Source: an uncultured Actinomycetes bacterium (GTDB lineage: Bacteria > Actinomycetota > Acidimicrobiia > Acidimicrobiales > Acidimicrobilacustridaceae). From it: DNA of 24,000 bases. Each line of letters starts with the position of its first letter. The stretch's first letter is position 1. Positions 823 to 23,551 of the stretch are shown piece after piece. The position numbers were made by a program, and so were the translations under genes. The notes beneath the pieces are model-generated. The model was not told the origin of the DNA, searched no databases, and saw only the letters and a program-made list of their open reading frames with translations. Location of the stretch: contig CALEHQ010000027.1 in NCBI GenBank assembly GCA_937876315.1, positions 75,526 to 99,525 of the forward strand, read 5' to 3'.

Positions 823-1890
823 TTAGATGTCGCGAGCACCCACGTATACGGCAAGTTCCCTTAGCGCGCCTAGTGCTTCTGATGTAATCGCCGCATCGTC
901 CAGTGCTGAAATTGCTTGATCCGTTAATTGCGTGATGCTTACTTCAACTTCGGACAATGCCCCGGTGTCAGTGAAGACCGACTGAATGGCGAGGATGTCC
1001 TCGGGCGCGAGATCAATGGAACCGACGCGACTGAGAATGTCTCGCTGAGAATTCGTTGCGCGGTCGAGAGCGATTGCCAGCATCGGGGTGGGCTTCCCTT
1101 CACGAAGATCGTCACCGACAGGTTTCCCAGTTCGCGCGCTGTTACCGAAGGTGCCAAGGATGTCATCGCGCAACTGAAATGCCTCACCCAATGGCTCGCC
1201 GTAGCGAGAAAGCGGTGTTTGAAGTTCATCGAGGCGTCCTGCGAGAGCTGCGCCAACGTGCAACGGACGCTCAATGGTGTACTTGCCGGACTTGTAGCGA
1301 ACGATTCGCCGTGCCGTCGCCAGATCGACGTCCCCTCGTGCCGCGCCGAGCACGTCGAGAAATTGACCGATGTTCAATTCGATCTTCAGTTCATTCCAAA
1401 TCTCGAATGCTGATTGTGGAGCATTCGACATCAAGCGGTCGGCGTACACCTCGGCGAGATCACCAACCAGGATTGCAACGCCCTCGCCAAAGCGCCTGGA
1501 TTCGCCGTTCCATTGGCTTGAGCTGTGCTCTGCGTCGAAGGTGCTGTGAATAGTGGGCTCGCCACGGCGCGTTGAAGATCCGTCCATGACGTCGTCGTGG
1601 ACAAGTGCGAATGCATGCAACAACTCGAACGCAGCGCCGGTTTCGATGATTGCGGGGTCATCAGCCATACCGCCAGCGCCGACGAACGCCCAGTGGCAGA
1701 ACGCAGGGCGCAGGCGCTTTCCCCCGTCGACGATAAATCGCGTCAAGACGTTGAGCGGTGCCTCGAGATCGGAATCGACTGCAACCCACCGAGAGCGCTC
1801 GGATTCAAGAATGGACCGAAGCCGCGCCTCAACGGGAGCGACAACTGCGGTGAGCGCAGCAGGTACAGCGACAGGAGTTGGGGATGTCAC
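823..1890 (-). CDS. short-chain polyprenyl diphosphate synthase (GGPP/FPP synthase family)
   Basis: 355 aa. First Asp-rich motif is LVHDDVMD, second is FQLRDDILG, followed by GKPVGDDLREGKPT. The start overlaps the xseB stop (1887-1890). Confidence 0.85.
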   Translation of the reverse strand: MTSPTPVAVPAALTAVVAPVEARLRSILESERSRWVAVDSDLEAPLNVLTRFIVDGGKRLRPAFCHWAFVGAGGMADDPAIIETGAAFELLHAFALVHDDVMDGSSTRRGEPTIHSTFDAEHSSSQWNGESRRFGEGVAILVGDLAEVYADRLMSNAPQSAFEIWNELKIELNIGQFLDVLGAARGDVDLATARRIVRYKSGKYTIERPLHVGAALAGRLDELQTPLSRYGEPLGEAFQLRDDILGTFGNSARTGKPVGDDLREGKPTPMLAIALDRATNSQRDILSRVGSIDLAPEDILAIQSVFTDTGALSEVEVSITQLTDQAISALDDAAITSEALGALRELAVYVGARDI

Positions 1891-3952: not shown

Positions 3953-4384
3953 TTACTCCTGAACGAGTTCGATCAGGGTGCCGAGAGCATCCTTCGGGTG
4001 GATAAACGCAACGGTGGTGCCGCGTGATCCGGGGCGAGGAGCGTCGTCAAGGACACGAAAGCCCTGAGCCTTCACTGCATCGAGCGCTTCGGCGCAATTA
4101 GCGACGCGATAGCCAACGTGATGAATGCCAGGACCACCGCGGTTGTTGAGCCACTTGGCGACGGTGGAGTCGTCTCGAGTCGGGGTAAGCAGCTGCACGT
4201 AGCTTTCTGCCACCTTCAACAGGGCTTCTTCAACGCCGTCGCTCTCAACAATTTCACGATGATCGACAACTGCACCGAAGGTCTCGCGGTAGTAGTCAAT
4301 TGCTGCGCCGAGGTCCGGAACTGCAATTGCGATGTGATCAATTTCGGTAAGCAGTGGCTTCTGGTTTGCAGCAGCTTCGCTCAT
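3953..4384 (-). CDS. mce: methylmalonyl-CoA (ethylmalonyl-CoA) epimerase, VOC/glyoxalase fold
   Basis: Motifs IDHIAIAVPDLGAAIDYYRETFG, GIHHVGYRV and FIHPKDALGTLIELVQ. The ATG at 4384 is preceded by AGGAG at 5-nt spacing. The longer ORF begins at 4432 (alternative start). Confidence 0.8.
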   Translation of the reverse strand: MSEAAANQKPLLTEIDHIAIAVPDLGAAIDYYRETFGAVVDHREIVESDGVEEALLKVAESYVQLLTPTRDDSTVAKWLNNRGGPGIHHVGYRVANCAEALDAVKAQGFRVLDDAPRPGSRGTTVAFIHPKDALGTLIELVQE

Positions 4385-4456
4385 CTGGACTCCTGATTCG
4401 TCTTCGCCGGGTCGGCGTGCAGTGATGGCCATTGGATTGGTCCTTCGTTGGGGGTG

Positions 4457-5836
4457 TTAGGCGCCGTGGCGACGGAACGCAGTGATGCGGTCCTCGCCGA
4501 CCTTGGTGCGAAATTCTGGATCGTCGATGCCGAGGCCTTCAGAAGGCGCAAGACAGAGCACTCCGATCTTGCCCTCATGCAGGTTTTTGTGGACCTGGTA
4601 GGCGGCTTCACCGGTCTGATCAAGCGGATACACAGCAGAAAGAATCGGCTGAATCTTGCCTTCGCAGATGAGTTGGTTTGCGGCCCATGCTTCTGCGTAA
4701 TTCGCGAAGTGGGAACTGATGATGTTCTTCAACTTCATCCAGAGGTGACGGTTGTCGTATTCGATCATGAAGCCGCTCGTTGCAGCGCAGGTGACGATGG
4801 TCCCGCCTCGTGCAGCGACGAACACCGACGCACCGAATGTTTGGCGACCGGGATGTTCGAACACGATGTCCACATCGCGACCGATCATTGAACGGATGTC
4901 CTTGCCGAGACGACGCCACTCGGATTCATCCTGAGTGTGTTCGTCGGCCCAGAACTTGTAGTTGGCTTCGCGCCGATCAATGACATGCTCAACGCCGAGG
5001 TCGTTGAGAAGCGCAACCTTTTCCGCGGAGGAAACGACGCCGACCGGGGTGCCTCCACCATTGAGGATGTATTGAACGGCGTAACCGCCGAGGCCGCCTG
5101 ATGCACCCCACACAAGCACGGCGTCACCTTGTTTCATTTGGGCAGCGTTCTTACTCACCAGCATTCGGTAACTCGTCGAGTTGCACAGAGCATTCACCGA
5201 CGCTTCTTCCCACGAAAGATGTGCGGGCTTCGGCATGAGCTGGTTGGCCTTGACGACAGAAAGTTCGGCGAGGCCGCCGTAATTGGTTTCGAATCCCCAA
5301 ATTCGCTGATTGTCGCCAAGCATTGAGTCGTTGTGACTTGATGCGTCTTGATCATCGACGTAGTTGCAGTGGGCAACGACCTTGTCGCCGACCTTCCACT
5401 TACGAACGGCGCTACCGACGCGCAGCACAACGCCCGATGCGTCGGAACCAACAGCATGGAACGGCTGGTCGTGGCGTGCGCCCCAGTAACTCTCTTTGCC
5501 GAGACGCTTGAGGAATCCGAAGGTCGAGACGGGTTCAAAGATGGAGGACCAGACCGTGTTGAAGTTGATCGAACTGGCCATGACCGCGATGACGGCTTCG
5601 TCGGGAGCCAGTTCAGGCATGGCGATCTCTTGAAGGTGAAGTGCCTGACGGGGGTCTTTGTCGCCTGAGTCCATTCCGTCGAACATCGTCTGTTCGGACG
5701 CGAGTACGACGGTGGCTTTATAGGACTCGGGCAGGGGGATGGCCGCGAGTTCCTCGCCGGGGGCTCCTTGAATGATGGCGTCGATGATCTGCTGCATGGG
5801 GCCGAACGCTACCGTTTCCGCCACTCGGGGGGCCAT
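4457..5836 (-). CDS. ccr: crotonyl-CoA carboxylase/reductase
   Basis: 459 aa. Long stretches match remembered Ccr sequence: AAIPLPESYKA, VMASSINFNTVWSSIFEP, RIWGFETNYGGLAE, KANQLMPKPAHLSWEEA, VLVWGASGGLGGYA, DIVFEHPGRQTFGASV, IEYDNRHLWMKLKNIISSHFANY, GKIGVLCLAP. An alternative start at 5797 (MQQIIDAI...) fits homolog N-termini better. Confidence 0.9.
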   Translation of the reverse strand: MAPRVAETVAFGPMQQIIDAIIQGAPGEELAAIPLPESYKATVVLASEQTMFDGMDSGDKDPRQALHLQEIAMPELAPDEAVIAVMASSINFNTVWSSIFEPVSTFGFLKRLGKESYWGARHDQPFHAVGSDASGVVLRVGSAVRKWKVGDKVVAHCNYVDDQDASSHNDSMLGDNQRIWGFETNYGGLAELSVVKANQLMPKPAHLSWEEASVNALCNSTSYRMLVSKNAAQMKQGDAVLVWGASGGLGGYAVQYILNGGGTPVGVVSSAEKVALLNDLGVEHVIDRREANYKFWADEHTQDESEWRRLGKDIRSMIGRDVDIVFEHPGRQTFGASVFVAARGGTIVTCAATSGFMIEYDNRHLWMKLKNIISSHFANYAEAWAANQLICEGKIQPILSAVYPLDQTGEAAYQVHKNLHEGKIGVLCLAPSEGLGIDDPEFRTKVGEDRITAFRRHGA

Positions 5837-5845
5837 GTGATCGAC

Positions 5846-5857
5846 GGCCCTAGGGCC
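5846..5857. promoter_or_regulatory. perfect 12-bp palindrome GGCCCTAGGGCC in the ccr/thiolase divergent region (candidate operator)
   Basis: Read directly from the sequence; it is its own reverse complement. Confidence 0.25.
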
Positions 5858-5892
5858 ATGAGGCCCCGAGAGTTACCGACGGGTAGTGTTTT

Positions 5893-5902
5893 GTCCCGGG
5901 AC
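5893..5902. promoter_or_regulatory. perfect 10-bp palindrome GTCCCGGGAC in the ccr/thiolase divergent region (candidate operator)
   Basis: Read directly from the sequence. It lies just downstream of a TAGTGT -10-like hexamer at 5884-5889. Confidence 0.2.
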
Positions 5903-5972
5903 ATCACCGTCCCTCCAGCCGACCACCTGTCTGAGTTGGCGGCTAGGTACTCATCCTCTTGGAGGTTCAGAC

Positions 5973-7154
5973 ATGGCTGGATCGGTCATTCTCGCTGGCG
6001 CCCGTACTCCCATCGGCAAGCTTTCTGGCGCACTCGCCGGTTTCGAAGCCTCCGACCTCGGAGCGATTGCTATTCGCGCCGCGCTTCAGCGCGCCGGGCT
6101 TACCCCCGATCAGGTCGACTACGTCTTCATGGGCCAGGTGCTCTTGGGTGGCGCTGGTCAGATGACAGCTCGCCAGGCATCGACGAAGGCCGGCATCCCA
6201 ATGTCCGTTCCGTCAACCACCGTGAACAAGGTGTGCCTCTCGGGTCTCAACGCGATCCACCTCGCCGACCTCTACATCCAGTCCGGCGAAGCCGACATTG
6301 TTGTTGCCGGTGGCATGGAGTCCATGACCAACGCTCCGTACCTCATGCCTGGCGCACGTGCCGGTCTGCGCATGGGTGACGGCAAGGTTGTCGACTCAAT
6401 GATGTTCGACGGTTTGTTCTGCGCCATTGATCAAATGGCAATGGGTGCGGGAACAGAAAAGTACGCAGCTACCGCTGGCCTTAGTCGCGATTCGCAGGAT
6501 GCACTCGCCGCGCTCTCACATGCACGTGCAGTCAAGGCCCAAGCCGACGGACTCTTCAATGATGAAATCGTCAAGGTCGAGATTCCGCAGCGCAAGGGCG
6601 ATCCCAAACTCTTCTCTGAAGATGAAGGTGTTCGCGCCGAGACCACACTCGACTCACTCGGTGCTTTACGTCCAGCATTCGATAAGGCCGGCAACATCAC
6701 TGCTGGTAATGCTTCGCAGATTTCCGATGGTGGCGCCGCTGTCATCGTTGCGTCGGAAGCCGCTGCTGAGCGTCTTGGAATCACGCCGCTTGGTCGCATC
6801 ATTGGTTACGGCCAGGTTGCTGGCCCCGATGCTTCGCTGCTTGATCAGCCGGCAAATGCCATCAACAATGCGCTTGATCGAGCTGGCATGAAGCTCAGTG
6901 ATCTTGACCTGTTCGAACTCAACGAAGCATTTGCTGCGGTAGGCGTTGCTTCAATGGCCAAGCTCGGTATCACCGATGAAATAACCAACGTCAACGGAGG
7001 CGCAATCGCACTTGGTCACCCCATCGGCATGTCAGGCACCCGCGTTGCACTGCACATCCTTATGGAACTCAAGCGTCGCGGTGGTGGCAAGGGTGCTGCT
7101 GCACTCTGTGGTGGTGGCGGTCAGGGCGACGCCATCCTTCTTGAGTCGATCTGA
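5973..7154 (+). CDS. acetyl-CoA C-acetyltransferase (thiolase II)
   Basis: The ATG at 5973 is preceded by GGAGG at 5961-5965. The N-terminus is MAGSVILAGARTPIGK. Also present are the Cys nucleophile VNKVCLSGL, NEAFA, and C-terminal GHPIGMSG and CGGGGQG. The 5' part of the tracked ORF (5886-5972) is probably not translated. Confidence 0.9.
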   Translation: MAGSVILAGARTPIGKLSGALAGFEASDLGAIAIRAALQRAGLTPDQVDYVFMGQVLLGGAGQMTARQASTKAGIPMSVPSTTVNKVCLSGLNAIHLADLYIQSGEADIVVAGGMESMTNAPYLMPGARAGLRMGDGKVVDSMMFDGLFCAIDQMAMGAGTEKYAATAGLSRDSQDALAALSHARAVKAQADGLFNDEIVKVEIPQRKGDPKLFSEDEGVRAETTLDSLGALRPAFDKAGNITAGNASQISDGGAAVIVASEAAAERLGITPLGRIIGYGQVAGPDASLLDQPANAINNALDRAGMKLSDLDLFELNEAFAAVGVASMAKLGITDEITNVNGGAIALGHPIGMSGTRVALHILMELKRRGGGKGAAALCGGGGQGDAILLESI

Positions 7155-10169: not shown

Positions 10170-10290
10170 CCCCCGTGTGACGGTCAGGCGACCTGCGGCA
10201 CATCGGTGGTCCCGTTGAGAGCTGCTGCCTTCCGGCCCTGACTCGATTCGCGGGTTCCGATTGCACAGGACCCGACCGCCACACGCGAGA
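10170..10290 (-). ncRNA. ffs: signal recognition particle RNA (small bacterial SRP / 4.5S type); ends uncertain by about 15 nt
   Basis: The minus strand reads GAGUCAGGGCC-GGAA-GGCAGCAGCUC. This is the conserved domain IV pattern: GNRA tetraloop (plus-strand 10230-10233) flanked by AGG and AGCA loop motifs. Extended helical pairing supports it: CCCG/CGGG, AUCGG/CCGAU, CCUG/CAGG, CGGUC/GACCG, GUGUG/CACAC. It occupies the position upstream of dnaX usual in Actinobacteria. Confidence 0.75.
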
Positions 10291-10355: not shown

Positions 10356-10443
10356 GGAGGGGTGCGAGAGCGGCCGAATCGGCACGCTTGGAAAGCGTGT
10401 GTGGGGAAACTCACCGTGGGTTCGAATCCCACTCCCTCCGCCA
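10356..10443 (+). tRNA. tRNA-Ser (anticodon GGA)
   Basis: Manual fold: acceptor GGAGGGG/TCCCTCC, D stem CGA/TCG, anticodon stem CACGC/GCGTG with loop TTGGAAA. Also a long variable arm, a T arm GTGGG-TTCGAAT-CCCAC, discriminator G and an encoded CCA. Confidence 0.9.
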
Positions 10444-11012: not shown

Positions 11013-11102
11013 GGAAAGTTGCCAGAGCGGACGAATGGGGCGGCCTCGAAAGCCGTTGTGGCCTTCGGGTCACCGAGGGTTCGAATCCCTCACTTTCCGC
11101 CA
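11013..11102 (+). tRNA. tRNA-Ser (anticodon CGA)
   Basis: Manual fold: acceptor GGAAAGT/ACTTTCC, D stem CCA/TGG, anticodon stem GCGGC/GCCGT with loop CTCGAAA. Also a long variable arm, a T arm GAGGG-TTCGAAT-CCCTC, discriminator G and CCA. Confidence 0.9.
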
Positions 11103-11161: not shown

Positions 11162-13042
11162 ATGATGCCCAGTTCGCTCCATTCAATGATGGCCGGCAAC
11201 CGCGACGCGATCGCCGGTAAGTCGCTCAGTCGCCGGACAATCCTCCGAGTGCTCTCCTACACCAGTCCGTATCGGTTGGCGATCACAGCATTCCTGATCG
11301 TCATCGTGATCCAGGCATTACTTGGGCTTGCTCCGGCCCTGCTGTTTCGTCAGATCATCGACAAGGCCATTCCCGAAGGCAACCGCGGGCTCTTGCACGT
11401 TCTTGCCGCAGTGATTATCGCCGCGGCGGTTTTTTCTTCCGCGATGTCGTTCTGTGAGCGCCTCTATTCCTCGCGCATCGGCGAAGGACTGATTTTCGAT
11501 CTTCGGGTGAAGTTGTTCGATCACGTATCGGCGATGCCAATTGGGTTCTTCACGCGTACTCAAACTGGTGCACTGATGAGTCGACTGAATAACGACGTCA
11601 TCGGGGCGCAGCGCGCAGTCACCACCACCCTCGGTTCGGTTGTTTCAAACGTCATCGTGTTAATCACGACATTGATCGCAATGTTCTATTTGGAATGGCG
11701 CCTGACGATTATTGGCATTCTGGTTTTGCCGATCTTCATCATCCCCGCCAAGAGAGTTGGGCGGCGGTTGTCGGCGATCACGCGACGTGGTTTCGACTTG
11801 AACGCTGTGATGAACACGCAGATGACGGAACGCTTCAACGTATCGGGCGCACTTTTGGTGAAGCTCTTTGGAAATCGAAAGCGCGAAAACAAAGAATTTT
11901 CCGATCGAGCGGCAGAGGTCCGTGATGTGGGCATTCAGAGCGCTATGTACAGCCGTACCTTTCTCATTGCGCTTGCTCTCGTTGGCGCAATCGGAACGGC
12001 ACTTGTGTACTGGATCGGCGGGCAGCTTGTTATTTCCGATGCGATCACGCTTGGAACGTTGGTCGCATTAGCGGCACTGGTGACACGCATCTATGAACCG
12101 CTCACTGCGCTTTCGAGTGCTCGTGTCGACATCATGACTGCACTTGTTTCCTTCGATCGCGTCTTTGAAGTCCTCGATCTTCGCAATTCGCTCGATGACA
12201 AAGAAGATGCAATCGACCTTCCTCCTTCTAAGGGCGCAATTGAATTTGATCACGTCACCTTCCGCTATCCATCTGGATCGGAAGAGTCGCTCGCTTCCCT
12301 CGAAATCGGGTTGAGCGGCTCGGTTGATGATGGCCCCGGTGCCGAGGTTCTTCACGATGTCTCCGCTTCAATTCTTCCCGGGCAGTTGATCGCACTCGTT
12401 GGCCCATCGGGTGCAGGTAAGACGACGTTGAGTTCCCTGGTCCCGCGTTTGTATGACGTCACCGAAGGTTCGGTGCGTATCGATGGTCACGACGTTCGTG
12501 ATCTCACGCTCGATTCCTTGCGCGGTGCAGTTGGCGTGGTGTCTCAGGACCCTCACCTGTTTCATGACACCGTTGCCGAGAACCTTCGCTATGCCCGCCA
12601 CGATGCCACCGATGCAGAGATTGTTGCTGCCTGTCAGGCTGCACAGATTCACGATGTGATTGCTGCGCTTCCCGACGGTTACAACACCGTTGTTGGTGAG
12701 CGAGGTCATCGCCTCTCTGGTGGCGAGAAGCAGCGTTTGGCGATTGCGCGCGTATTGGTGAAAGCGCCGGCGATTATCGTTCTCGACGAAGCAACAAGTC
12801 ATCTCGATTCGGAAAACGAATCGCTTGTTCAAAAGGCGCTGGCCACTGCGCTCGCAGGCCGAACAGCGTTAGTCGTTGCGCATCGGCTTTCGACCATCAC
12901 TGGCGCCGACCAGATCCTGGTTCTTGAGTCAGGTCGGATCGTTGAGCGTGGTCGCCACGAAGAGTTGTTGAACGCCGATGGTTTGTATGCCGACCTCTAC
13001 CGCACTCTCGTGCGTCAAGATCTCGAAGGCATTGAGGCCTAA
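11162..13042 (+). CDS. ABC exporter, fused permease/ATPase (type I exporter, MsbA/MdlB-like)
   Basis: 626 aa with an N-terminal six-helix transmembrane domain. Walker A GPSGAGKTT, signature LSGGEKQRLAIAR, Walker B IIVLDEATSHLD, H-loop VVAHRLST. Confidence 0.9.
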   Translation: MMPSSLHSMMAGNRDAIAGKSLSRRTILRVLSYTSPYRLAITAFLIVIVIQALLGLAPALLFRQIIDKAIPEGNRGLLHVLAAVIIAAAVFSSAMSFCERLYSSRIGEGLIFDLRVKLFDHVSAMPIGFFTRTQTGALMSRLNNDVIGAQRAVTTTLGSVVSNVIVLITTLIAMFYLEWRLTIIGILVLPIFIIPAKRVGRRLSAITRRGFDLNAVMNTQMTERFNVSGALLVKLFGNRKRENKEFSDRAAEVRDVGIQSAMYSRTFLIALALVGAIGTALVYWIGGQLVISDAITLGTLVALAALVTRIYEPLTALSSARVDIMTALVSFDRVFEVLDLRNSLDDKEDAIDLPPSKGAIEFDHVTFRYPSGSEESLASLEIGLSGSVDDGPGAEVLHDVSASILPGQLIALVGPSGAGKTTLSSLVPRLYDVTEGSVRIDGHDVRDLTLDSLRGAVGVVSQDPHLFHDTVAENLRYARHDATDAEIVAACQAAQIHDVIAALPDGYNTVVGERGHRLSGGEKQRLAIARVLVKAPAIIVLDEATSHLDSENESLVQKALATALAGRTALVVAHRLSTITGADQILVLESGRIVERGRHEELLNADGLYADLYRTLVRQDLEGIEA

Positions 13043-14716: not shown

Positions 14717-15427
14717 ATGACTGACGCACCACCACCGCCACCACCGGGAAGTACACCGCCACCGCCACCGCCACCGCCACCGCCACCGCCGGGAAGTACC
14801 CCACCACCTGCTCCACCCACACCGCCAGCATCACCGGTCCCACCGGTTGGTGGTGCGCCTAGCCCGAACAACGGATTAGCAATTGCTGCCCTCGTGCTCG
14901 GCATCTTGACCTTTGTGTGTCTCGGCCCGATCGCTGGTGTCCTCGCCATCATCTTTGGTTTCTTGGGGCTGAAGAAGGCGAACGAAATGGGCGGTACCGG
15001 TAAGGGCATGTCTATCGCCGGCATCGTGCTCGGCTTAGTTGGGACAATCGCCTCAATCCTGTTTCTGGTTTTCGTTGTCTTTGCTGTTGGTCAGGCAACT
15101 GACTCAATCTCCGATTCGGTGAAGAACTGGTCGGGAGAAGCGAATGCATCCGACTACAACGTGACCGTTGAAAAGTGCGCGGTCGACGAAACGTTTGGTT
15201 CGCCGGAAATGACGATCAAAGTCACGAACAAAACTTCAGGTGAGAAGAACTACATTTTCAACTACGAGTTCCGCTCCGGCTCGGGCACATTGATCGACAG
15301 CGGCTCGTCATTTCCGGAATCGATACCCCCGAATGGCTCGAAACTTGTGGTGATTTCAAGTTTCGAAGATGTGACATCACCTTCGGTGAAGTGTGAAATC
15401 ACCAGTGTTGAAAATTGGTTCAACTGA
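14717..15427 (+). CDS. membrane protein with a poly-proline N-terminus, a DUF4190-like two-helix hairpin, and a C-terminal extracytoplasmic beta-rich domain
   Basis: GGGGGAG RBS upstream. The N-terminus is PPPPPPGSTPPPPPPPPPPPPGSTPPPAPPTPP. The two helices GLAIAALVLGILTFVCLGPIAGVLAIIFGFLGLKKA resemble DUF4190. A third helix follows, then a C-terminal domain of about 110 aa containing two Cys. Confidence 0.7.
   Translation: MTDAPPPPPPGSTPPPPPPPPPPPPGSTPPPAPPTPPASPVPPVGGAPSPNNGLAIAALVLGILTFVCLGPIAGVLAIIFGFLGLKKANEMGGTGKGMSIAGIVLGLVGTIASILFLVFVVFAVGQATDSISDSVKNWSGEANASDYNVTVEKCAVDETFGSPEMTIKVTNKTSGEKNYIFNYEFRSGSGTLIDSGSSFPESIPPNGSKLVVISSFEDVTSPSVKCEITSVENWFN
14756..14790 (+). repeat. coding hexanucleotide microsatellite (CCGCCA)x5 + CCGCC, nested in a duplicated CCGGGAAGTAC (PGST) unit
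   Basis: Counted directly from the sequence. The flanking CCGGGAAGTAC copies lie at 14744-14754 and 14787-14797. Confidence 0.9.
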
Positions 15428-15512: not shown

Positions 15513-16421
15513 ATGCGAGTTGCGTTTGTGACGACAATTGACCAAGACGCGATTCATGACGATGTCGACCTTCCGCTCCAAGTAACTGTATTTGCCGATT
15601 CAGGCATCGAACTCGTCCAAGCGCCGTGGGAAGACCCAACCATCGACTGGGATTCGTTCGATCTCATCGTGGTGCGGAGTCCATGGAACTACGTCGATCG
15701 GCTTGACGAGTTTCGCCATTGGTTGGACTCGCGTCGACGCATGAGGACAATTCACAATGCGGTGTCGCTTATTGAATGGAACATGGACAAGCGGTATCTC
15801 GCCGGTCTTGCTGCGCGCGGGGTGCCGATTGTGCCGACGGTGTTCGCCGAGTCAATGGAACAATTCCAAGTGGCTGCCAGGTCTGCACGTAGTCCAGAAA
15901 TCGTCGTGAAGCCCTCGGTGTCGGCGGGGAGTCGACTCACGGGTCGCTTCGCGGTGGACGATGCTGCCGCTGAGGAACTCGCGGGTCAGGTACTTGCCAA
16001 GGGTTTTGCGGTAATGGTGCAACCTTTCGCTTCACGCATCGATGATCAGGGCGAAATCGGAACGGTCCTCTTTGACGGCGTGGTGTCTCATTCGTTCCGC
16101 AAAGCTGCGCGTCTGGCCGAAGGCGGTGCGCTTGTGGGTGGCGAATACAGGGAGGAAATCACGGCGATCGTTGCACCCGATGACATCCTTGCCGTCGTCG
16201 AATTGGCATCGATCGCCGCAACCACGATCGCCCGTGAGAGCGGTTGGCTCGCCGCCAACGAGGAACTTCTCTATGGGCGCTATGACGTCATCCGCCTCGA
16301 TGATGGATCACCTGCATTGCTCGAGGCAGAACTCTTCGAGCCCTGCTTCTTCTTGCCGACGGATGCTGAAGCACCCCATCGTTTCGTTGACGCTGTTATT
16401 CGACGGTTGCCGAACTCGTAG
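15513..16421 (+). CDS. ATP-grasp-fold ligase of unknown specificity (RimK/glutathione-synthetase-like)
   Basis: 302 aa. The N-terminal pre-ATP-grasp pattern is W.DP.IDWDSFDLIVVRSPWNY...F..W, followed by NMDKRYLAGLAARGVPIVPT. Also present are IVVKPSVSAGS, VMVQPF and ALLEAELFEP, resembling the ATP-grasp strand and loop motifs. Confidence 0.55.
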   Translation: MRVAFVTTIDQDAIHDDVDLPLQVTVFADSGIELVQAPWEDPTIDWDSFDLIVVRSPWNYVDRLDEFRHWLDSRRRMRTIHNAVSLIEWNMDKRYLAGLAARGVPIVPTVFAESMEQFQVAARSARSPEIVVKPSVSAGSRLTGRFAVDDAAAEELAGQVLAKGFAVMVQPFASRIDDQGEIGTVLFDGVVSHSFRKAARLAEGGALVGGEYREEITAIVAPDDILAVVELASIAATTIARESGWLAANEELLYGRYDVIRLDDGSPALLEAELFEPCFFLPTDAEAPHRFVDAVIRRLPNS

Positions 16422-16424
16422 ATG

Positions 16425-17228
16425 TCAGTTGGCGAGTGTGCCGGCAAAGATCTGCCAAGCAAGCGCACTCTTCGCAACAAGGCTTAGGACGAGGTACACC
16501 TTTTCGCCGTAGAGGTAATCGGTGAACTTTCCCTTACCGCGGTACTGGAGCCACTGATTAAGAGCGAAGCAGTTGAACAACAAGAAGAGCGAAATAACGA
16601 TCCCGAATACGAAGACGGGTACCCCATCGGCATTTGCAGGAACCCCGTTGATCATTGTGTTGTCGGTAGCTGCTGAGTAGAGCGCGATCACAATGGCAAT
16701 CCACGGAATAATTCCGACAATGCAGCCGAAGATAAATGGCCGCCAGTTCACGGACTCCCGATTTTGGTTGACCTGCTCCATTACGAGCCCGAACAAAATC
16801 ATCGCGGCGTTGACACCAAAAATTGCAACGAGGGCGTAGAAGTTATTGATGCCATTGAGCAGGCAGATCAGCAGGATCATGATTGATGCGCTGACGGAGT
16901 ATTCAATCCAACGCGCGTAATTCACTCCGCGAAGCAGATTGCGTTCGTACCAGGCCCGGATGGGGGTCACTGATGTAAGGAGATGGTCGCCAGCTGCAAG
17001 AAACAAAAAGATTGCGATGGCAATCGCGAAGTTGAAACTAAAGAAGGTCTTACTTGCAGTCGTAAGTGAACCTTCAGCCCCAGGAGGGCCGGTCTGCACG
17101 GCTGCGACGATCGGAATTGCAAATGAACTACTCAGAATGAGGATGAGGATGCCCTGCACGAGATGCAGACCTCCGACTCCGATATTCCACTTGCGGAGAT
17201 TGACGAGTCGTTCTGAGGTTTCAGGCAT
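16425..17228 (-). CDS. heliorhodopsin (retinal-binding seven-helix photoreceptor, inverted topology)
   Basis: 267 aa with seven hydrophobic helices. It aligns along its length with remembered HeR-48C12. LRKWNIGVGGLHLVQ...FAIP...GPPG matches LQNFNRIAGVFHLLQ...FALP...GPPG. RWIEYSVSASIMILL matches RWVEYSLSSSVMIVL. AIFGVNAAMILFG, FGCIVGIIPWI and ISLFLLFNCFALNQWLQYRGKGK also match. VLSLVAKSALAWQIFAGTL matches VLSLVAKSALAWQIFSGTL. Schiff-base Lys is K253 (codon 16470-16472), counterion is E109, and His22 and His82 are conserved. The N-terminus is basic (cytoplasmic side). Confidence 0.9.
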   Translation of the reverse strand: MPETSERLVNLRKWNIGVGGLHLVQGILILILSSSFAIPIVAAVQTGPPGAEGSLTTASKTFFSFNFAIAIAIFLFLAAGDHLLTSVTPIRAWYERNLLRGVNYARWIEYSVSASIMILLICLLNGINNFYALVAIFGVNAAMILFGLVMEQVNQNRESVNWRPFIFGCIVGIIPWIAIVIALYSAATDNTMINGVPANADGVPVFVFGIVISLFLLFNCFALNQWLQYRGKGKFTDYLYGEKVYLVLSLVAKSALAWQIFAGTLAN

Positions 17229-17235
17229 GGATCAA

Positions 17236-17241
17236 ATGCTA
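17236..17241 (-). promoter_or_regulatory. candidate -10 hexamer TAGCAT (minus strand), 7 nt upstream of the heliorhodopsin ATG (possible leaderless mRNA)
   Basis: The minus strand reads TTTAGCATTTGATCC-ATG with no Shine-Dalgarno motif. The hexamer lies in the 60-bp divergent spacer. Confidence 0.3.
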
Positions 17242-17288
17242 AACGTTTTTGGGTCTTGCGGCCGTTAGTTGAGGCGGTCTAGTCCTAG

Positions 17289-18185
17289 ATGGGGAACAAT
17301 GACGGCATGCAGGTACATCTCGTTGACGGCACCTATGAGCTCTTTCGCCACCATTTCGCGCTGCCGTCTCGGGCCAATGCCGACGGCATGGAGGTTGCGG
17401 CAACCCGTGGTGTGGTGATGTCGATGTTCAACATGTTGGACGAAGGCGCGACCCATGTTGGCATTGCGACCGATCGCACGGTTGATTCATTCCGCAACGA
17501 ACTGTGGGATGGCTACAAGTCGGGTGAAGATCTTGATCCCGAACTTGGCAACCAGTTCCCGTTGCTCGACGAGGTGTTGATCGCTGCGGGTTTTTCGGTG
17601 TTCTCAATGGTTGAACACGAGGCCGACGACGGTATGGGTTCGGCTGCTGCAAAAGCTGCGTCTGACAAAAACGTGCAACAAGTTCTTATCTGCACTCCCG
17701 ACAAAGACCTTGCCCAATGCGTTGTTGGAAATCGCGTCGTGCAATTCGACCGTCGCAAGGGTCAGATGTTCGATCACGATGGAGTGATCGAAAAGTTTGG
17801 GGTTCCGCCAGAATCGATCCCTGATTACCTCGCACTTATGGGCGACGCATCCGATGGTTTCCCAGGGCTGCCCGGTTGGGGTGCCAAGTCGGCATCAACT
17901 GTTCTTGGTCGCTACTTGCATATTGAAAACATTCCGGCTGACCCAGCGGACTGGGATGTGCAAGTTCGAGGTGCGGCAAAGCTCGCAGCAACATTGCAAG
18001 AACAAATGGAACTCGCGATGTTGTTCAGAAAGATCGCAACGGTGGTGACCGACGCGCCGACGTTCACGACGATTGATGAACTTCGTTGGACTGGATCTCG
18101 TGACAACTTCGCCGAAGTAGCCGCACGTATCGATGCGCCTCGGCTTGTTGAACGAGCCGCGAAATTGGCCCAGACGCGAAACTGA
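17289..18185 (+). CDS. 5'-3' exonuclease / flap endonuclease (Pol I N-terminal-domain family, FenA/ExoIX-like)
   Basis: N-terminus VHLVDGTYELFR. Acidic clusters FRNELWDGYK, VEHEADDGMG and CTPDKDLAQC, plus the H3TH motif LMGDASDGFPGLPGWGAKSA. An ATG at 17307 (MQVHLVDG) is an alternative start. Confidence 0.85.
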   Translation: MGNNDGMQVHLVDGTYELFRHHFALPSRANADGMEVAATRGVVMSMFNMLDEGATHVGIATDRTVDSFRNELWDGYKSGEDLDPELGNQFPLLDEVLIAAGFSVFSMVEHEADDGMGSAAAKAASDKNVQQVLICTPDKDLAQCVVGNRVVQFDRRKGQMFDHDGVIEKFGVPPESIPDYLALMGDASDGFPGLPGWGAKSASTVLGRYLHIENIPADPADWDVQVRGAAKLAATLQEQMELAMLFRKIATVVTDAPTFTTIDELRWTGSRDNFAEVAARIDAPRLVERAAKLAQTRN

Positions 18186-18569: not shown

Positions 18570-20126
18570 ATGTCGGAACACCCAATGACCGAGCGTCTGG
18601 CCCAACTGGCCGAGCGCAAGGAACAAGCCCTCCACGCCGGTTCAGAGCGTTCGGTCGAACGCCAGCACTCGAAGGGCAAGATGCTTGCTCGAGAGCGCAT
18701 CGATTATTTGCTCGATGAGGGTTCATTCCATGAACTCGACATGCTTGCTCGCCATCGTGCGCATGACAGTGGCATCGAAGAACGTCCCTACACCGATGGC
18801 GTCGTCACTGGGTGGGGAACCATCGATGGCCGAAAGGTCTTCGTGTTCTCGCAGGACTTCACCGTTTTCGGTGGAGCACTTGGCGAGGTCTTCGCCGAAA
18901 AGATCCACAAGGTGATGGACCTTGCTCTTTCTGTTGGCGCGCCGTTGATCGGCCTCAACGATGGTGCCGGTGCTCGTATCCAAGAAGGCGTCGTGTCGCT
19001 CGCTAGTTACGGCGGCATCTTCCATCGCAACGTTCAAGCATCGGGTGTGACTCCGCAGATCTCTGTGATCCTCGGCCCATGCGCTGGTGGTGCGGTCTAT
19101 AGCCCCGCTATGACTGACTTCATCTTCATGGTCGATGAAACCTCACACATGTTCATCACTGGTCCCGATGTTGTGAAGACCGTAACGGGCGAAGATGTCA
19201 CGCTCGAAGAACTCGGTGGTGCAAAGTCACACGCGAGCAAGTCCGGTGTGGCCACGTTTGTTTCTCCGGACGAGAAGTCCTGCCTTGACGACGTGAAGTA
19301 CCTCTTCTCATTCCTTCCGTCGAACAACCTCGAGACTGCACCCGAGATGCCGACAGACGACGATCCGCAACGCAGTTGCCCAGAACTCATCGACATCATG
19401 CCGGCCAGCCCCAATATTCCGTATGACATGAAGAAGGTCATCGCGTCGGTTGTCGACGACGGCGATTTCTTCGAGTACTTCCCCCGTTGGGCCGGTTCCA
19501 TCGTGTGTGGTTTCGCTCGCCTCAACGGTGAATCCGTCGGCATCGTTGGCAATCAGCCGATGGTTCTTGCTGGTGTGCTCGACATCGAGTCGGCAGAAAA
19601 GGGCGCACGTTTCGTGCGTACCTGCGATGCATTCAACATTCCGCTGGTTACCTTCGTCGACGTACCCGGATTCCTTCCTGGCGTCGATCAGGAATACGGC
19701 GGCATCATTCGCCATGGCGCCAAGTTGCTCTACGCCTTCTGTGAAGCAACCGTTCCACGTATTCAGGTCATCACTCGTAAGGCCTACGGCGGCGCATATG
19801 TGGTCATGAACTCCAAGTCGATTGGCGCCGATCTTGCGTTCGCATGGCCGTCGGCCGAACTTGCAGTGATGGGCCCGAATGGCGCTGTCGAGATCCTCTA
19901 CCGCCGTGAACTTCAGGGTGCGGCCGATCCCGAAAAGCGTCGTGCGGAACTAATCGAGGATTACACCGAACGATTCGCGAACCCGTACGTTGCGGCCGAG
20001 CGTGGATTCATCGATGACGTCATCGATCCCGCCGACACGCGCATGAAGGTCATCGCCGGTCTTGAGATGCTCAAGTCCAAGCGCGAGGAACTTCCGCATC
20101 GCAAGCACGGAAACATTCCGTTGTGA
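18570..20126 (+). CDS. pccB: acyl-CoA carboxylase carboxyltransferase (beta) subunit, propionyl-CoA carboxylase type
   Basis: 518 aa. N-terminus QHSKGKMLARERIDYLLDEGSF. Also GWGTIDGRKVFVFSQDFTVFGGALGE, GLNDGAGARIQEG, ILGPCAGGAVYSPAMTDF, LVTFVDVPGFLPG and HGAKLLYAF, as in PccB/AccD5. Confidence 0.9.
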   Translation: MSEHPMTERLAQLAERKEQALHAGSERSVERQHSKGKMLARERIDYLLDEGSFHELDMLARHRAHDSGIEERPYTDGVVTGWGTIDGRKVFVFSQDFTVFGGALGEVFAEKIHKVMDLALSVGAPLIGLNDGAGARIQEGVVSLASYGGIFHRNVQASGVTPQISVILGPCAGGAVYSPAMTDFIFMVDETSHMFITGPDVVKTVTGEDVTLEELGGAKSHASKSGVATFVSPDEKSCLDDVKYLFSFLPSNNLETAPEMPTDDDPQRSCPELIDIMPASPNIPYDMKKVIASVVDDGDFFEYFPRWAGSIVCGFARLNGESVGIVGNQPMVLAGVLDIESAEKGARFVRTCDAFNIPLVTFVDVPGFLPGVDQEYGGIIRHGAKLLYAFCEATVPRIQVITRKAYGGAYVVMNSKSIGADLAFAWPSAELAVMGPNGAVEILYRRELQGAADPEKRRAELIEDYTERFANPYVAAERGFIDDVIDPADTRMKVIAGLEMLKSKREELPHRKHGNIPL

Positions 20127-20326
20127 GCGATTCGTCGCCGAGCGTGCGCATCACGCCCGAACCGACCATTGAAGAGGCAGCAGCAATTGCTGCTGCTATT
20201 GAAGTCACCCGACCTCGAATCATGGTGGGACAGGAAGTCGAGCCGGAATCGCGATGGCGATTCAGCGGCCGTTGGTGGTCGCGTCAGGTGGCATCCCGTC
20301 GCGCACGACCCGCTGCTCGCAACTAA
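20123..20326 (+). CDS. acyl-CoA carboxylase epsilon subunit
   Basis: 67-aa ORF with a GTG start overlapping the pccB stop (GTGA). It has an Ala-rich helix EEAAAIAAAIEV and a Trp/Arg-rich tail RWRFSGRWWSR, typical of actinobacterial AccE. The position after the beta subunit is conserved. Confidence 0.6.
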   Translation: MSDSSPSVRITPEPTIEEAAAIAAAIEVTRPRIMVGQEVEPESRWRFSGRWWSRQVASRRARPAARN

Positions 20327-20375
20327 GGCTGAACGAAACCACGAAACCCAGTGCCCTTGATCGGCCAAAGGGCGG

Positions 20376-21533
20376 GTGGCCCGGCACCTCGCTTCTGCCG
20401 TTAGCGTTTCGGTCGTGCCTACGTCGCCGCTATCTGATCTACGCGTCATCGACATCTCTACGGTTCTGGCCGGACCTGGTTGTGCCCGACACTTGGCCGA
20501 CTTCGGTGCTGACGTCATCAAGGTGGAGCGCCCCGGGAAGGGTGACACCGTTCGCGATATGGGATGGCGCGATCCATCCGATGACATCACCTTGTTCTGG
20601 AAAGTTGCCGGTCGAGGAAAGCGCACCATTGCTCTTGATCTGAAAACCGAAGAGGGGTTGTCGGTTCTTCGTCGGTTGCTCGATACAGCCGACGTGCTCG
20701 TCGAAAATTTTCGGCCCGGAAAGCTCGAAGCACTGGGGCTTGACCCGGACACGCTCCACGCAACAAACCCGAAGCTGATCATTACTCGCGTGACGGGATT
20801 CGGTCAGACCGGTCCGTATCGAGATCGCCCTGGCTTTGCGACACTGGCCGAAGCGATGTCGGGATTCGCGAACGTGAATGGTGAACCCGATGGTGCGCCA
20901 ACGCTTCCACCCATCGCGCTTACCGACGAAGTGACGGCAATCGTCGCTGCATTCGCCACGATGGTCGCATTGCACTCAGGGGCTGGGCAGGTTGTCGACG
21001 TCAATCTTCTCGAGTCGATGTTGCACCTGATGGGCCCACTGCTTTCCGCAAACGCGCTCACTGGCTACGAACAACCTCGTCTCGGATCGGGCATTCCCTA
21101 TTCGGTGCCGCGCAATACCTATCAGTGCTCCGATGGGAAGTGGGTCGCGATCTCAACGACTGCGGAGTCGGTTGCACAGCGGCTGATGGCGTTAGTGGGT
21201 GCTCCTGATGATCCACGGTTCGATGGTTTCGAAAACCGAGTCGCCAATCGCGAGCTCATTGATGAGATCGTCGGCGAATGGGTGTCGCAACGGCCTCTCG
21301 AACTTGTGCTTGCTGAAGCGGAACTTGCCGAAGTTGCGGTTGCGCCGGTCCACTCAATGGCTGATGTTGTGAATGATCCGCATCTACGTGAACGCAACGC
21401 GATTATCGAAGTCGATGGCGTCCCGATGCAGAATGTGATCGCTCGTTTGTCAGCGACACCTGGCGCAGTTCGCTTTGCAGCCCGTGGTCTTGGCGCCGAT
21501 ACAGACGCCGTGATCGCAGAACTCGACGACTGA
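20376..21533 (+). CDS. family III CoA-transferase (CaiB/BaiF/Frc family), substrate unknown
   Basis: LSDLRVIDISTVLAGPGCARHLADFGADVIKVERPGKGDTVR is the hallmark N-terminus. Also LVENFRPG and a candidate catalytic-Asp region IALTDEVTA. A GTG at 20415 is a plausible alternative start. Confidence 0.85.
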   Translation: MARHLASAVSVSVVPTSPLSDLRVIDISTVLAGPGCARHLADFGADVIKVERPGKGDTVRDMGWRDPSDDITLFWKVAGRGKRTIALDLKTEEGLSVLRRLLDTADVLVENFRPGKLEALGLDPDTLHATNPKLIITRVTGFGQTGPYRDRPGFATLAEAMSGFANVNGEPDGAPTLPPIALTDEVTAIVAAFATMVALHSGAGQVVDVNLLESMLHLMGPLLSANALTGYEQPRLGSGIPYSVPRNTYQCSDGKWVAISTTAESVAQRLMALVGAPDDPRFDGFENRVANRELIDEIVGEWVSQRPLELVLAEAELAEVAVAPVHSMADVVNDPHLRERNAIIEVDGVPMQNVIARLSATPGAVRFAARGLGADTDAVIAELDD

Positions 21534-21538
21534 CGTCG

Positions 21539-23551
21539 TCAGCCGCGAGTTTCAGCAACAAGTGCGGCGATATCGCTCATGATGTGGCCGAGCTCAAAGT
21601 CTTTGGGTGTGTAGACGCGAGCGACGCCGGCCGCAAGCAGCTTGGGTCGGTCATCTTCGGGGATGATCCCGCCGACAATGACGGGACAGGTCACGCCCTC
21701 GGCCCGGAGTCGTTCGACGACATCGGGAACGAGTTGCATGTGGCTTCCGGAAAGAATTGAAAGTCCGACGACGTCAACGTCTTCGTCCCGAGCAACTGCG
21801 GCAATCTGAGTTGGGGTGAGGCGTATGCCTTGATAGATGACTTCCATGCCGGCGTCACGCGCCGCTACTGCGATCTGTTCAGCGCCATTGGAGTGACCGT
21901 CAAGGCCAGGCTTGCCCACGAGGAACCGCGGAGGACCGCCGGCCATGGTCTTGACTCGTTCAGCGACGGCTCGAAGATCTTCAGGCATGGTGCCGACGCC
22001 AGCAGCGGCTGCGACGCCGGTTGGGGCGCGGTATTCGCCAAAAACCTCGCGCAGTGCCCCCGCCCATTCGCCCGTGGTTCCGCCAGCAACAGCCAAGGCA
22101 ATGGTTGCTCCCATGATGTTTTCGTCAGTGAGGGCAACACGGCGCAATTCGGCGAGGGCGGCTTCGACGGCAGCGTTGTCGCGAGCGGCCCGCCATGTTT
22201 CAACCTCAGAAATGGTCTGTGCCTCGACAGCGGGATCGACGCGAAGAATTGACTCATCGCCAGAAAGTGGAGAGTCAGCGGCTTCGGTGAACTTGTTGAC
22301 ACCGACGACGATCTGCTCGCCGGTTTCGATACGACGAACTCGATCGGTGTTCGATGCAACAAGGCGACCCTTGAGTTCTTCGATGGCGGAAAAAGCCCCG
22401 CCCATTGCCAAAATCTCTTCGAGTTCAGCACGCGCTGCAGTAACCAGTTCATCAGTGAGGCCTTCGATGACGTGAGAGCCATTGAAGATGTCCTCGTATT
22501 CGAGAAGATCGGTTTCGAAGGCGAGGACTTGTTGCATGCGGAGCGACCATTGCTGATCCCATGGCCGGGGGAGACCGAGGGCTTCGTTCCATGCGGGAAG
22601 CTGCAGGGATCGAGCGCGCGCATCTTTTGAAAGGGTGACGCCGAGCATCTCTAGCACGATTCTCTGCACGTTGTTTTCGGGCTGTGCTTCAGTGAGTCCA
22701 AGGGAGTTCACCTGCACGCCATAGCGGAAGCGCCGAGCCTTGGCATCGGTGACGCCGTAGCGCTCAAGGCAGATTTCATCCCACATCTTTGTGAACGCAC
22801 GCATCTTGCACACTTCTTCAACAAAGCGAATGCCCGAGTTCACGAAGAACGAGAGAGAAGCAACGACCGCAGACATTCGATCGGCGGGAACCTGACCGCT
22901 GTCGCGCACCGCATCAAGAACATCGATTGCCGTTGCCAGCGAGTACGCAATTTCCTGAACCGTTGTGGCTCCGGCTTCTTGAAGGTGATAGCTGCAGACG
23001 TTCATCGGATTCCATGCCGGGATGTTTTCCGAGCACCATGCAACCATGTCGACGATGAGCCGACGGGAAGGCCCTGGCGGGAAGATGTACGTGCCTCGCG
23101 AGAGGTATTCCTTCACGATGTCGTTCTGAGTTGTGCCGCGTAGTTCGCTTGATGCAACTCCGTTCTCTGCTGCGTAGGCGACATACAGAGCAAGAAGCCA
23201 GGCTGCAGTCGCGTTGATTGTCATCGAAGTGTTCATCCCGCCAACGGGGATGCCTTCAAGGAGTTCGCGCATATGGCCAATTTCGGCAACAGGAACGCCG
23301 ACCTTGCCGACTTCGCCGCGCGAGCGCGGATCATCGGGGTCGTAACCGGTCTGGGTTGGAAGATCGAACGCAATCGACAGGCCGGTCTGACCCTTAGCCA
23401 AGTTGGTTCGGTAGAGCTCGTTCGAGGCGCGCGCGGTTGAGTGCCCTGAGTAGGTGCGCATCATCCACGGACGATCGGCTGATCGAATCGATTCTCCAGA
23501 AGGGGTCGAGCTCATATCTCCATGGTCGCCCACTGATGGTTGCTTTGTCAC
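21539..23551 (-). CDS. ecm: B12-dependent acyl-CoA mutase, single-chain MeaA/ethylmalonyl-CoA mutase type
   Basis: 670 aa. RPWMMRTYSGHSTARASNELYRTNLAKGQTGLSIAFDLPTQTGYDPDD matches the MeaA/Ecm signature (TY.GHS...PTQTGYD). It does not match the MCM signature (QYAGFST...ATHRGYDSD). The C-terminal B12-binding domain has GLDGHSNGAEQIA (DxHxxG) and SILSGSH. The GTG start overlaps the aat stop. Confidence 0.8.
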   Translation of the reverse strand: MTKQPSVGDHGDMSSTPSGESIRSADRPWMMRTYSGHSTARASNELYRTNLAKGQTGLSIAFDLPTQTGYDPDDPRSRGEVGKVGVPVAEIGHMRELLEGIPVGGMNTSMTINATAAWLLALYVAYAAENGVASSELRGTTQNDIVKEYLSRGTYIFPPGPSRRLIVDMVAWCSENIPAWNPMNVCSYHLQEAGATTVQEIAYSLATAIDVLDAVRDSGQVPADRMSAVVASLSFFVNSGIRFVEEVCKMRAFTKMWDEICLERYGVTDAKARRFRYGVQVNSLGLTEAQPENNVQRIVLEMLGVTLSKDARARSLQLPAWNEALGLPRPWDQQWSLRMQQVLAFETDLLEYEDIFNGSHVIEGLTDELVTAARAELEEILAMGGAFSAIEELKGRLVASNTDRVRRIETGEQIVVGVNKFTEAADSPLSGDESILRVDPAVEAQTISEVETWRAARDNAAVEAALAELRRVALTDENIMGATIALAVAGGTTGEWAGALREVFGEYRAPTGVAAAAGVGTMPEDLRAVAERVKTMAGGPPRFLVGKPGLDGHSNGAEQIAVAARDAGMEVIYQGIRLTPTQIAAVARDEDVDVVGLSILSGSHMQLVPDVVERLRAEGVTCPVIVGGIIPEDDRPKLLAAGVARVYTPKDFELGHIMSDIAALVAETRG

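Follow-up and report, generated by a model that had tools for sequence, protein, structure and literature searches.

The stretch of DNA analysed here (the window: 24,000 nucleotides of contig CALEHQ010000027.1, assembly GCA_937876315.1, from an uncultured freshwater Acidimicrobiia bacterium) carries on its minus strand, at 16425-17228, a gene that is, judged from its sequence, a genuine, intact and canonical bacterial heliorhodopsin (HeR) of the 48C12 group (subfamily 1). The gene is solitary and stand-alone, and we consider it fairly probable (roughly 60%) that its product would be a slow-cycling, non-transporting photosensor, acting via cationic cytoplasmic loops on a partner protein encoded elsewhere. 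In the following, we describe the evidence for the family assignment, the residues of the predicted chromophore pocket, a clade-specific change in the second transmembrane helix (TM2), and the variable genomic slot in which the gene is found.

Gene identity and family assignment

The gene was defined from the open reading frame list and its translation as an ATG-to-TGA frame encoding 267 amino acids plus the TGA stop. Profile hidden Markov models (HMMs), sequence matches to solved HeRs, and a fold search all agree on its identity, as a preliminary description of this DNA had proposed. In a Pfam profile search, the 267-aa protein matched PF18761 (Heliorhodopsin) over the full length of the profile (positions 1–242 of 242; E 3.1e-91, 305.5 bits relative to a cut-off of 26.7), and no other family, hence no type-1 rhodopsin profile, was found at E<=1. 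The protein also scored 293.4 bits with the NCBIfam HeR equivalog model NF038020, for which the cut-off is 100. A PDB sequence search with the same protein matched only three heliorhodopsins: HeR-48C12 (6su3, E 4e-61), TaHeR (6is6, E 6e-56), and the eukaryotic Cv06 (9vfc, E 1e-38).

An AlphaFold2 model (pLDDT 69.7), built from a 19-sequence alignment, contains seven long helices, and the protein likewise displays seven hydropathy peaks, in keeping with the seven hydrophobic helices noted in the preliminary description. By searching the model against the PDB with Foldseek, we obtained ten best matches that are all HeRs (E 1.6e-12 to 1e-10, TM-scores 0.73–0.80), with the best type-1 rhodopsin, a xenorhodopsin, following at E 4.6e-3. 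The N-terminus and loops 2, 4, and 6 together hold ten Lys/Arg residues, relative to one in the other loops; this is a positive-inside signature, from which an inverted (N-in) topology is predicted—that is, a seven-helix HeR protein with a cytoplasmic N-terminus. The same orientation had previously been proposed on the strength of an Arg/Lys-rich N-terminus; the topology is supported by the charges of the whole protein, whereas the richness of the N-terminus itself is modest, with three Lys/Arg and two Asp/Glu among residues 1–14.

These searches also decide against the view that the gene does not encode a functional HeR, and that the frame instead specifies a type-1 rhodopsin or some other seven-helix protein, or is a pseudogene in decay. 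The only point in favor of this view is that one "conserved" serine (S76 of HeR-48C12) is replaced by Ala, but Ala occupies this position in 32 members of our family survey, which comprised 103 full-length representatives of 50%-identity clusters. Moreover, type-1 profiles are absent at E<=1, type-1 structures reach E 4.6e-3 at best as opposed to approximately 1e-12 for HeRs, and the frame is intact and 97–98% conserved across many genomes. We therefore regard this explanation as effectively refuted.

The gene is of a kind already known and annotated, and near-identical sequences are public. More than 7,250 homologues were found in the protein collection at E<=1e-3, the best of which are 94–97% identical, and a relative with 87% identity is named "heliorhodopsin HeR [Actinomycetes bacterium]" by NCBI. 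A genome scan placed the gene in metagenome-assembled genomes of freshwater Acidimicrobiia/Acidimicrobiales, for which sequences with 97–98% identity have been deposited, and a 97% identical copy is carried by the cultured isolate KE-4 (OZ239146.1, a 2.35-Mb chromosome). Forty-five blocks of the assembly collection list this exact protein, which indicates that the organism is abundant and that the sequence is already public. The gene is thus both maintained and abundant.

Chromophore pocket and functional residues

Residues were mapped by alignment to HeR-48C12 (48% identity over 247 aligned positions), and their conservation was counted in 80 related genomic loci. K253 in TM7 (codon AAG at 16470-16472, minus strand, as are all codons below) is the predicted retinal Schiff-base lysine; it lies within SLVAKSALAWQIF (SLVAKSALAWQ), corresponds to K241 of 48C12, and is kept in 78 of these loci, the remaining two being alignment gaps. 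The predicted single Schiff-base counterion, E109 in TM3 (16902-16904, within RWIEYS), aligns with 48C12 E107 and is present in all 80. The histidine pair is formed by H22 (17163-17165, within GLHLVQ), the TM1 histidine of the Schiff-base cavity, and H82 (16983-16985), the predicted proton-relay histidine of TM2, which align with H23 and H80 of 48C12, respectively. Every residue and codon quoted in the preliminary description, including the GPPG loop (residues 47–50), was located as given there, and the roles it had assigned to K253 and E109, like the two conserved histidines it had named, agree with this alignment.

Many further residues are shared with 48C12, namely S113 (S111), S249 (S237), N103 (N101), R106 (R104), W107 (W105), Y110 (Y108), E151 (E149), Q225 (Q213), Q228 (Q216), E242 (E230), N15 (N16), and Y94 (Y92), the 48C12 numbering being given in parentheses. 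These conserved residues are the ones to which Kovalev et al. (PMC7049168) assign the Schiff-base region and the cytoplasmic Schiff-base cavity. By alignment, the cytoplasmic cavity of the present protein is lined, as in 48C12, by H22, H82, N15, Y94, N103, R106, Y110, E242, and S249. The protein also exhibits the HeR pattern of a single Glu counterion (E109), where type-1 rhodopsins have an Asp pair, together with a Ser (S249) at the position of type-1 Asp212, the roles of which have been described (PMC7049168).

The residues of TM6 bear on whether the protein could move protons in a light-driven or light-gated fashion. Proton transport does occur in some HeRs, and the viral V2HeR3 is marked by E191 and W195 in TM6 (PMC9448325); in addition, the clade studied here possesses an extra carboxylate, D81, beside H82. 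However, L214 and F218 occupy the positions of V2HeR3 E191 and W195, such that the proton-transport Glu/Trp pair is absent, and the extracellular-half positions that we checked are as in 48C12, for which no transport is seen (PMC7049168). The protein also belongs to the 48C12 group rather than to the viral group. Proton transport in the manner of V2HeR3 is, in our estimation, scarcely credible for this protein.

A lateral fenestration, proposed as a carotenoid site, is represented by F165, C169, G172, F218, N219, and A222 (16563-16736, minus strand), which correspond to F162, C166, G169, F206, N207, and A210 of 48C12. All six are identical to their 48C12 counterparts, and the motif is nearly invariant in the 80 related loci. 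In a recent preprint (10.1101/2025.11.27.691015), the site is described as an opposing aromatic pair (162/206), small residues (166/210), and a glycine (169), and a two-antenna HeR is put forward in which an exogenous xanthophyll, bound at the fenestration next to the retinal ring, serves as a second antenna. The conserved site residues suggest that such an antenna might be present here, and this would be compatible with the sensor model. On the other hand, the case for HeRs in that preprint consists of structure comparison and docking, and in our reading of it we saw neither bound carotenoid nor energy transfer demonstrated with a bacterial HeR; no carotenoid enzyme genes lie beside the HeR gene in the window, and an antenna would leave the use of the absorbed energy unexplained. 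We consider this explanation possible, though on balance unlikely.

The predicted third cytoplasmic loop contains a cationic patch, R230-G-K232-G-K234 (16527-16541, minus strand), at the positions of 48C12 K218, K220, and K222. In AbHeR, the lysines K216, K217, and K220 of this loop (ICL3) are required for binding glutamine synthetase (PMC9529153). On the predicted extracellular side, the TM5-TM6 loop (DNTMINGVPANAD; window 16620-16680, residues ~186–204) is 7–10 residues longer than in 48C12 and in HeRs of at most 70% identity; this extension is predicted to form a small beta-hairpin and is confined to the subclade.

A clade-specific variant in TM2

The TM2 segment A78-A-G-D81-H82 (16983-16997, minus strand) combines the predicted proton-relay histidine with a pair of residues in which the protein departs from 48C12: S76 of 48C12 is replaced by A78, and F79, which precedes the relay histidine, by D81, while TaHeR has Ser and Ala at these two positions. 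In 48C12, S76 belongs to a trio of serines described as "highly conserved"; it forms a hydrogen bond with the counterion, its reorientation has been proposed to accompany proton transfer, and the S76A mutation shifts absorption to the red by 6 nm (PMC9726877). The serine triad (48C12 S76, S111, and S237) is incomplete here, with S113 and S249 kept and S76 replaced by A78.

A78 and D81 occur jointly in 78 of the 80 related loci, which are of the Acidimicrobiia/Thermoleophilia type. Among the 103 family representatives, the position of 48C12 S76 is Ser in 57 and Ala in 32, and the latter number implies that a missing triad serine does not exclude family membership. Asp is found at the second position in 15 representatives, 13 of them with Ala, two with Val, and none with Ser at the first. 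A78/D81 is thus a trait of the clade, and not a lesion. Exposure to lipid is unlikely for a conserved Asp in the middle of the membrane, and D81 therefore probably faces the polar cavity.

It is tempting to speculate, albeit tentatively, that A78/D81 defines an HeR subtype in which the counterion-bonding serine has been lost and a buried carboxylate has been placed one helical turn away, beside the proton-relay histidine; both structurally characterized prokaryotic HeRs carry Ser at the A78 position. If this were true, the D81 carboxylate would join or replace the proton-accepting group, changing the path of proton transfer and the photocycle, for example by providing a true carboxylate acceptor, by altering the M and O kinetics, or even by permitting vectorial proton movement. 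The covariation may be no more than a trait that the clade shares. In a limited search of the literature, we found no discussion of a natural S76A/D79 variant (48C12 numbering).

The same region is relevant to the proposal that the protein is a light-driven enzyme acting on a small planar anion, such as carbonate or nitrate, in the Schiff-base cavity. This hypothesis was derived for subfamily 1 from an acetate-bound structure (PMC7049168) and has been cited since (PMC7771536), and the residues lining the 48C12 cavity are all conserved in the window protein. Nevertheless, our reading of the literature uncovered no report of catalysis by any HeR, the A78/D81 pair changes the cavity, and genes for redox partners are absent from the vicinity; we judge an enzymatic role to be highly improbable.

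Gene organization and promoter

The order of genes around the HeR gene in the window is DcsG-like ATP-grasp, HeR, 5'-3' exonuclease, tatA, pccB, family III CoA-transferase, and methylmalonyl-CoA mutase. The ATP-grasp ligase gene (15513-16421, plus strand) is convergent with the HeR gene, their stops being 3 bp apart; it was identified from PDB 6jil (E 1.6e-39) and PF27100 (DcsG_N), while the local Pfam copy gave no match for this 302-aa protein. The FEN-like 5'-3' exonuclease gene (17289-18185, plus strand; PF02739 and PF01367) is divergent from the HeR gene and separated from it by a 60-bp intergenic region (17229-17288), which is the site of cassette insertion in sister strains. Neither neighbor lies on the HeR strand, and there is thus no operon.

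We looked beside the HeR gene for an adjoining partner on the same strand (a glutamine synthetase, an NAD+ synthetase, a photolyase, MerR, TerC, an ABC transporter, a short-chain dehydrogenase/reductase (SDR), an alpha/beta hydrolase, DUF2177, or DUF2238) and found none; genes for the two synthetases, photolyase, MerR, and TerC are absent from the whole window. Ten recurrent groups of HeR neighbors, SDR among them, have been described by Cho et al. (2024; PMC11109279). The ABC transporter encoded at 11162-13042 was considered as an OmrDE-like partner and rejected: it is a single half-transporter, four genes away and on the opposite strand. Rfam and tRNA scans of the window returned no RNA gene near the HeR gene.

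Upstream alignment of relatives revealed a -10-like TANNNT hexamer at a constant spacing from the start codon; in the window it is TAGCAT, at positions -13 to -8 from the ATG (17236-17241, minus strand). A TANNNT hexamer starts at -14 to -11 in 45 of 76 related loci, including all 30 in which the HeR is at least 70% identical; the background rate at random positions of these loci is 0.3%. Only six of the 76 have Shine-Dalgarno-like motifs, and no such motif follows TAGCAT in the window. The hexamer is also kept where other genes stand directly upstream of HeR (loci L002, L003, and L026), even behind the cassette described below. A sigma-70 consensus scan detected no promoter upstream of HeR. 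In actinobacterial promoters, a -10 element this near to the ATG and unaccompanied by a Shine-Dalgarno sequence is a signature of leaderless mRNA. Given this arrangement, we infer that the HeR gene is transcribed alone, probably under a TANNNT promoter of its own and as an mRNA that is leaderless and monocistronic.

A variable slot in a conserved gene order

Synteny was examined in the 80 genomic loci and in 80 loci from metagenomes for which the exonuclease served as the seed, by combining tblastn searches with the window proteins and the gene calls of the collection. The order ATP-grasp/HeR/exonuclease/tatA/pccB is kept in all flank-holding relatives whose HeR is at least 70% identical, and only in that subclade; HeRs of at most 67% identity have none of the window's neighbors. 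In the exonuclease-seeded metagenome scan, distant relatives, many of them apparently marine, were found to keep exonuclease-(tatA-)pccB without HeR. In two closer relatives (L104 at 4367-4501, exonuclease 83% identical; L105 at 1669-1783, exonuclease 77%), the ATP-grasp and exonuclease genes are 114–134 bp apart with nothing between them, so that both are natural genotypes of this slot that lack HeR.

Four states of the slot were distinguished among loci with both flanks: HeR alone (28 loci, and the state of the window), HeR with a two-gene cassette (six), HeR with an SDR gene (four), and empty (two). The cassette, present in approximately one-seventh of the related loci and absent from the window, lies on the HeR strand between the exonuclease and HeR genes and encodes a PqqD-like/Big_9 membrane protein and a PF13640 2-oxoglutarate-Fe(II) oxygenase; it ends 32 bp before HeR (L002:1346-3003, L026:4479-5968, L033:4287-5943, L088, and L097). 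The oxygenase family is tiny and clade-restricted, with 24 homologues at E<=1e-5, and those distant homologues that were looked up stand in unrelated contexts. As a partner of HeR, the cassette is not supported, because it abuts the ATP-grasp gene without HeR in one locus (L167), because its homologues occur in these other contexts, and because HeR keeps its own TANNNT behind it. In the sister lineages whose HeR is 78–82% identical, the start of the SDR (adh_short) gene overlaps the HeR stop by 4 nt (L172:4804-5580, L173, L019, and L021), an arrangement that looks like translational coupling; the linked SDR could be retinoid-related. An association of HeR with SDR is not new, SDR being among the neighbors already listed (PMC11109279). 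The slot is, in sum, a small variable islet in which HeR, SDR, and cassette come and go independently, the window showing the minimal state.

Since the flanking genes are adjacent without HeR in relatives, they do not depend on HeR. This bears directly on the idea that HeR regulates a neighbor in response to light, either the divergent exonuclease, with its link to DNA repair, or the convergent DcsG-like ligase, in the manner of the HeR-photolyase and HeR-glutamine synthetase pairs. The constant gene order of the flank-holding relatives of at least 70% HeR identity speaks for such regulation, as does the reported enhancement of photolyase activity by an HeR (PMC9769723). Yet the flanks meet without HeR in L104 and L105, the distant relatives keep exonuclease-pccB without HeR, HeRs of at most 67% identity have wholly different neighbors, sister strains have other genes inserted to one side of HeR or the other, and neither neighbor is on the HeR strand. 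Functional coupling of HeR to its neighbors was consequently rejected on the grounds that the flanks persist without HeR and that distant HeRs have other neighbors, and we rate light-dependent control of either flank as very unlikely. The preliminary description had presented the gene as an entry point to an uncharacterized light-responsive system in the window; that expectation was not borne out, the gene being solitary, with a promoter-like element of its own, with flanks that are adjacent without it in relatives, and with no known partner beside it.

Proposed mechanism

Under the photosensor reading, the protein would bind all-trans-retinal through K253 and, by analogy with characterized HeRs, absorb green-yellow light with an expected maximum at approximately 550–560 nm, the natural Ser-to-Ala change at 48C12 position 76 predicting a slight red shift. 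Light would drive the Schiff-base proton into the cytoplasmic cavity (E109, then H82) and back again, in a photocycle that would last seconds and produce no net ion transport. The long-lived state would reshape the cytoplasmic loops, including the R230/K232/K234 patch, and this loop change would in turn modulate a cytoplasmic or membrane partner protein, which, to judge from the locus, would be encoded at a distance from the HeR gene.

Several points weigh against this reading. For retinal binding, color, photocycle, and absence of transport, the basis is in every case extrapolation from TaHeR and from 48C12 (48% identical), and the leaderless transcript is deduced from a motif. The model of partner regulation stems from a few in vitro studies by one laboratory (PMC9529153, PMC9769723, and PMC11109279), and the HeRs in question have operon-encoded partners, whereas the HeR of the window has none. 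In addition, the literature has not settled what HeRs do physiologically, A78/D81 in the Schiff-base region could alter proton transfer, and the AlphaFold2 model is only moderately confident (pLDDT 69.7).

As a discovery, the gene amounts to little, given that freshwater Actinomycetota are already known as frequent carriers of heliorhodopsins and that this one falls within the NCBI naming model. It has a modest value as a natural experiment on HeR function, in which the same slot is found with and without HeR in close relatives. The availability of isolate KE-4, together with the slot polymorphism and the A78/D81 clade change, makes a comparison of light responses and mutant spectroscopy feasible.

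Other features of the window

The window represents core chromosome, as the preliminary description had proposed: dnaX, ybaB, recR, a signal recognition particle (SRP) RNA gene, and two tRNA-Ser genes accompany tatA, pccB, and the methylmalonyl-CoA mutase gene in this freshwater Acidimicrobiia organism. The SRP RNA, of the small bacterial type (10179-10277, minus strand; 76.6 bits), and the tRNA-Ser genes with anticodons GGA and CGA (10356-10443 and 11013-11102, plus strand, respectively) lie downstream of dnaX and were the only RNA genes returned by the scans of the window. Between the RNA genes and the HeR region are genes for an ABC half-transporter, a luciferase-like monooxygenase, a SnoaL-like protein, and a DUF4190 protein.

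The last of these, a membrane protein (14717-15427, plus strand), has a long Pro-rich start (PPPPPPGSTPPPPPPPPPPPPPGSTPP..., about 14720-14830), for which the opposite strand reads poly-Gly. Among contigs with an identical HeR, the calls for this gene give either 221 aa or a split into 91 + 94/133 aa, a pattern suggestive of a repeat that varies in length or was subject to slippage in assembly. The DcsG-like protein evolves much faster than its neighbors, with 46–90% identity where HeR shows 71–98%; DcsG itself is the ATP-grasp enzyme of the D-cycloserine pathway. For most homologues of the exonuclease, the alignment begins no earlier than residue 7, and the upstream ATG is missing from some relatives (window 17289-17309). 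Translation of this gene may thus begin at the ATG at 17307 (MQVHLVDG...), in which case the divergent region would be widened to 78 bp.

Two segments of the window (3953-7154 and 18570-23551) encode a thiolase, a 459-aa enzyme of the zinc alcohol dehydrogenase family (possibly crotonyl-CoA reductase-like), a glyoxalase-fold epimerase-like protein, PccB, a family III CoA-transferase, and a B12-dependent methylmalonyl-CoA mutase. This set of genes for acyl-CoA carboxylation and rearrangement suggests a methylmalonyl/ethylmalonyl-CoA route. A polyprenyl synthetase gene (823-1890, minus strand), 15 kb from HeR, could supply isoprenoid precursors; genes of carotenoid or retinal biosynthesis (crtB/I/Y and blh) were absent from the window.

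Comparison with known systems

The closest characterized system is HeR-48C12, a freshwater actinobacterial heliorhodopsin of known structure (6su3, 6su4, and 6uh3), with which the window protein shares the retinal lysine, the Glu counterion, the His pair, the cavity, the fenestration, the predicted N-in topology, the glutamines at 48C12 Q213 and Q216, the cationic patch of ICL3, and a hydrophobic TM6 residue (L202 in 48C12, L214 here). The two differ at S76 (A78 here), F79 (D81), S112 (A114), R91 (W93), and D127 (N129), and the window protein further contains insertions of 7 residues in the extracellular TM5-TM6 loop and of 3 residues in the AB loop, its host being a member of the Acidimicrobiia. 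TaHeR, from a Thermoplasmatales archaeon (6is6), is alike in fold, in key residues, and in the hydrophobic residue that the non-transporting type has at the position of V2HeR3 E191, but it is archaeal, belongs to group B, and carries Ser and Ala where A78 and D81 stand here.

AbHeR, TfHeR, and OcHeR have been reported to bind and up-regulate glutamine synthetase, photolyase, and an ABC multidrug transporter, respectively, these partners being encoded on the same strand and in the same predicted operon (PMC11109279). The cationic third cytoplasmic loop, which is the reported binding surface, is kept in the window protein as R230/K232/K234, and the mechanism proposed above is modeled on these systems. 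In contrast to those three systems, both neighbors are on the other strand here, and the nearest ABC transporter gene (11162-13042) is four genes off on the opposite strand. V2HeR3, from Emiliania huxleyi virus 202, has in common with the window protein the Glu counterion and an equivalent of its E215 (E242 here), but its E191 and W195 are replaced by L214 and F218. With regard to the SDR-linked HeRs (Cho et al., 2024; PMC11109279), it is the sister lineages that carry an SDR gene in this very slot, whereas the gene of the window stands there without one.

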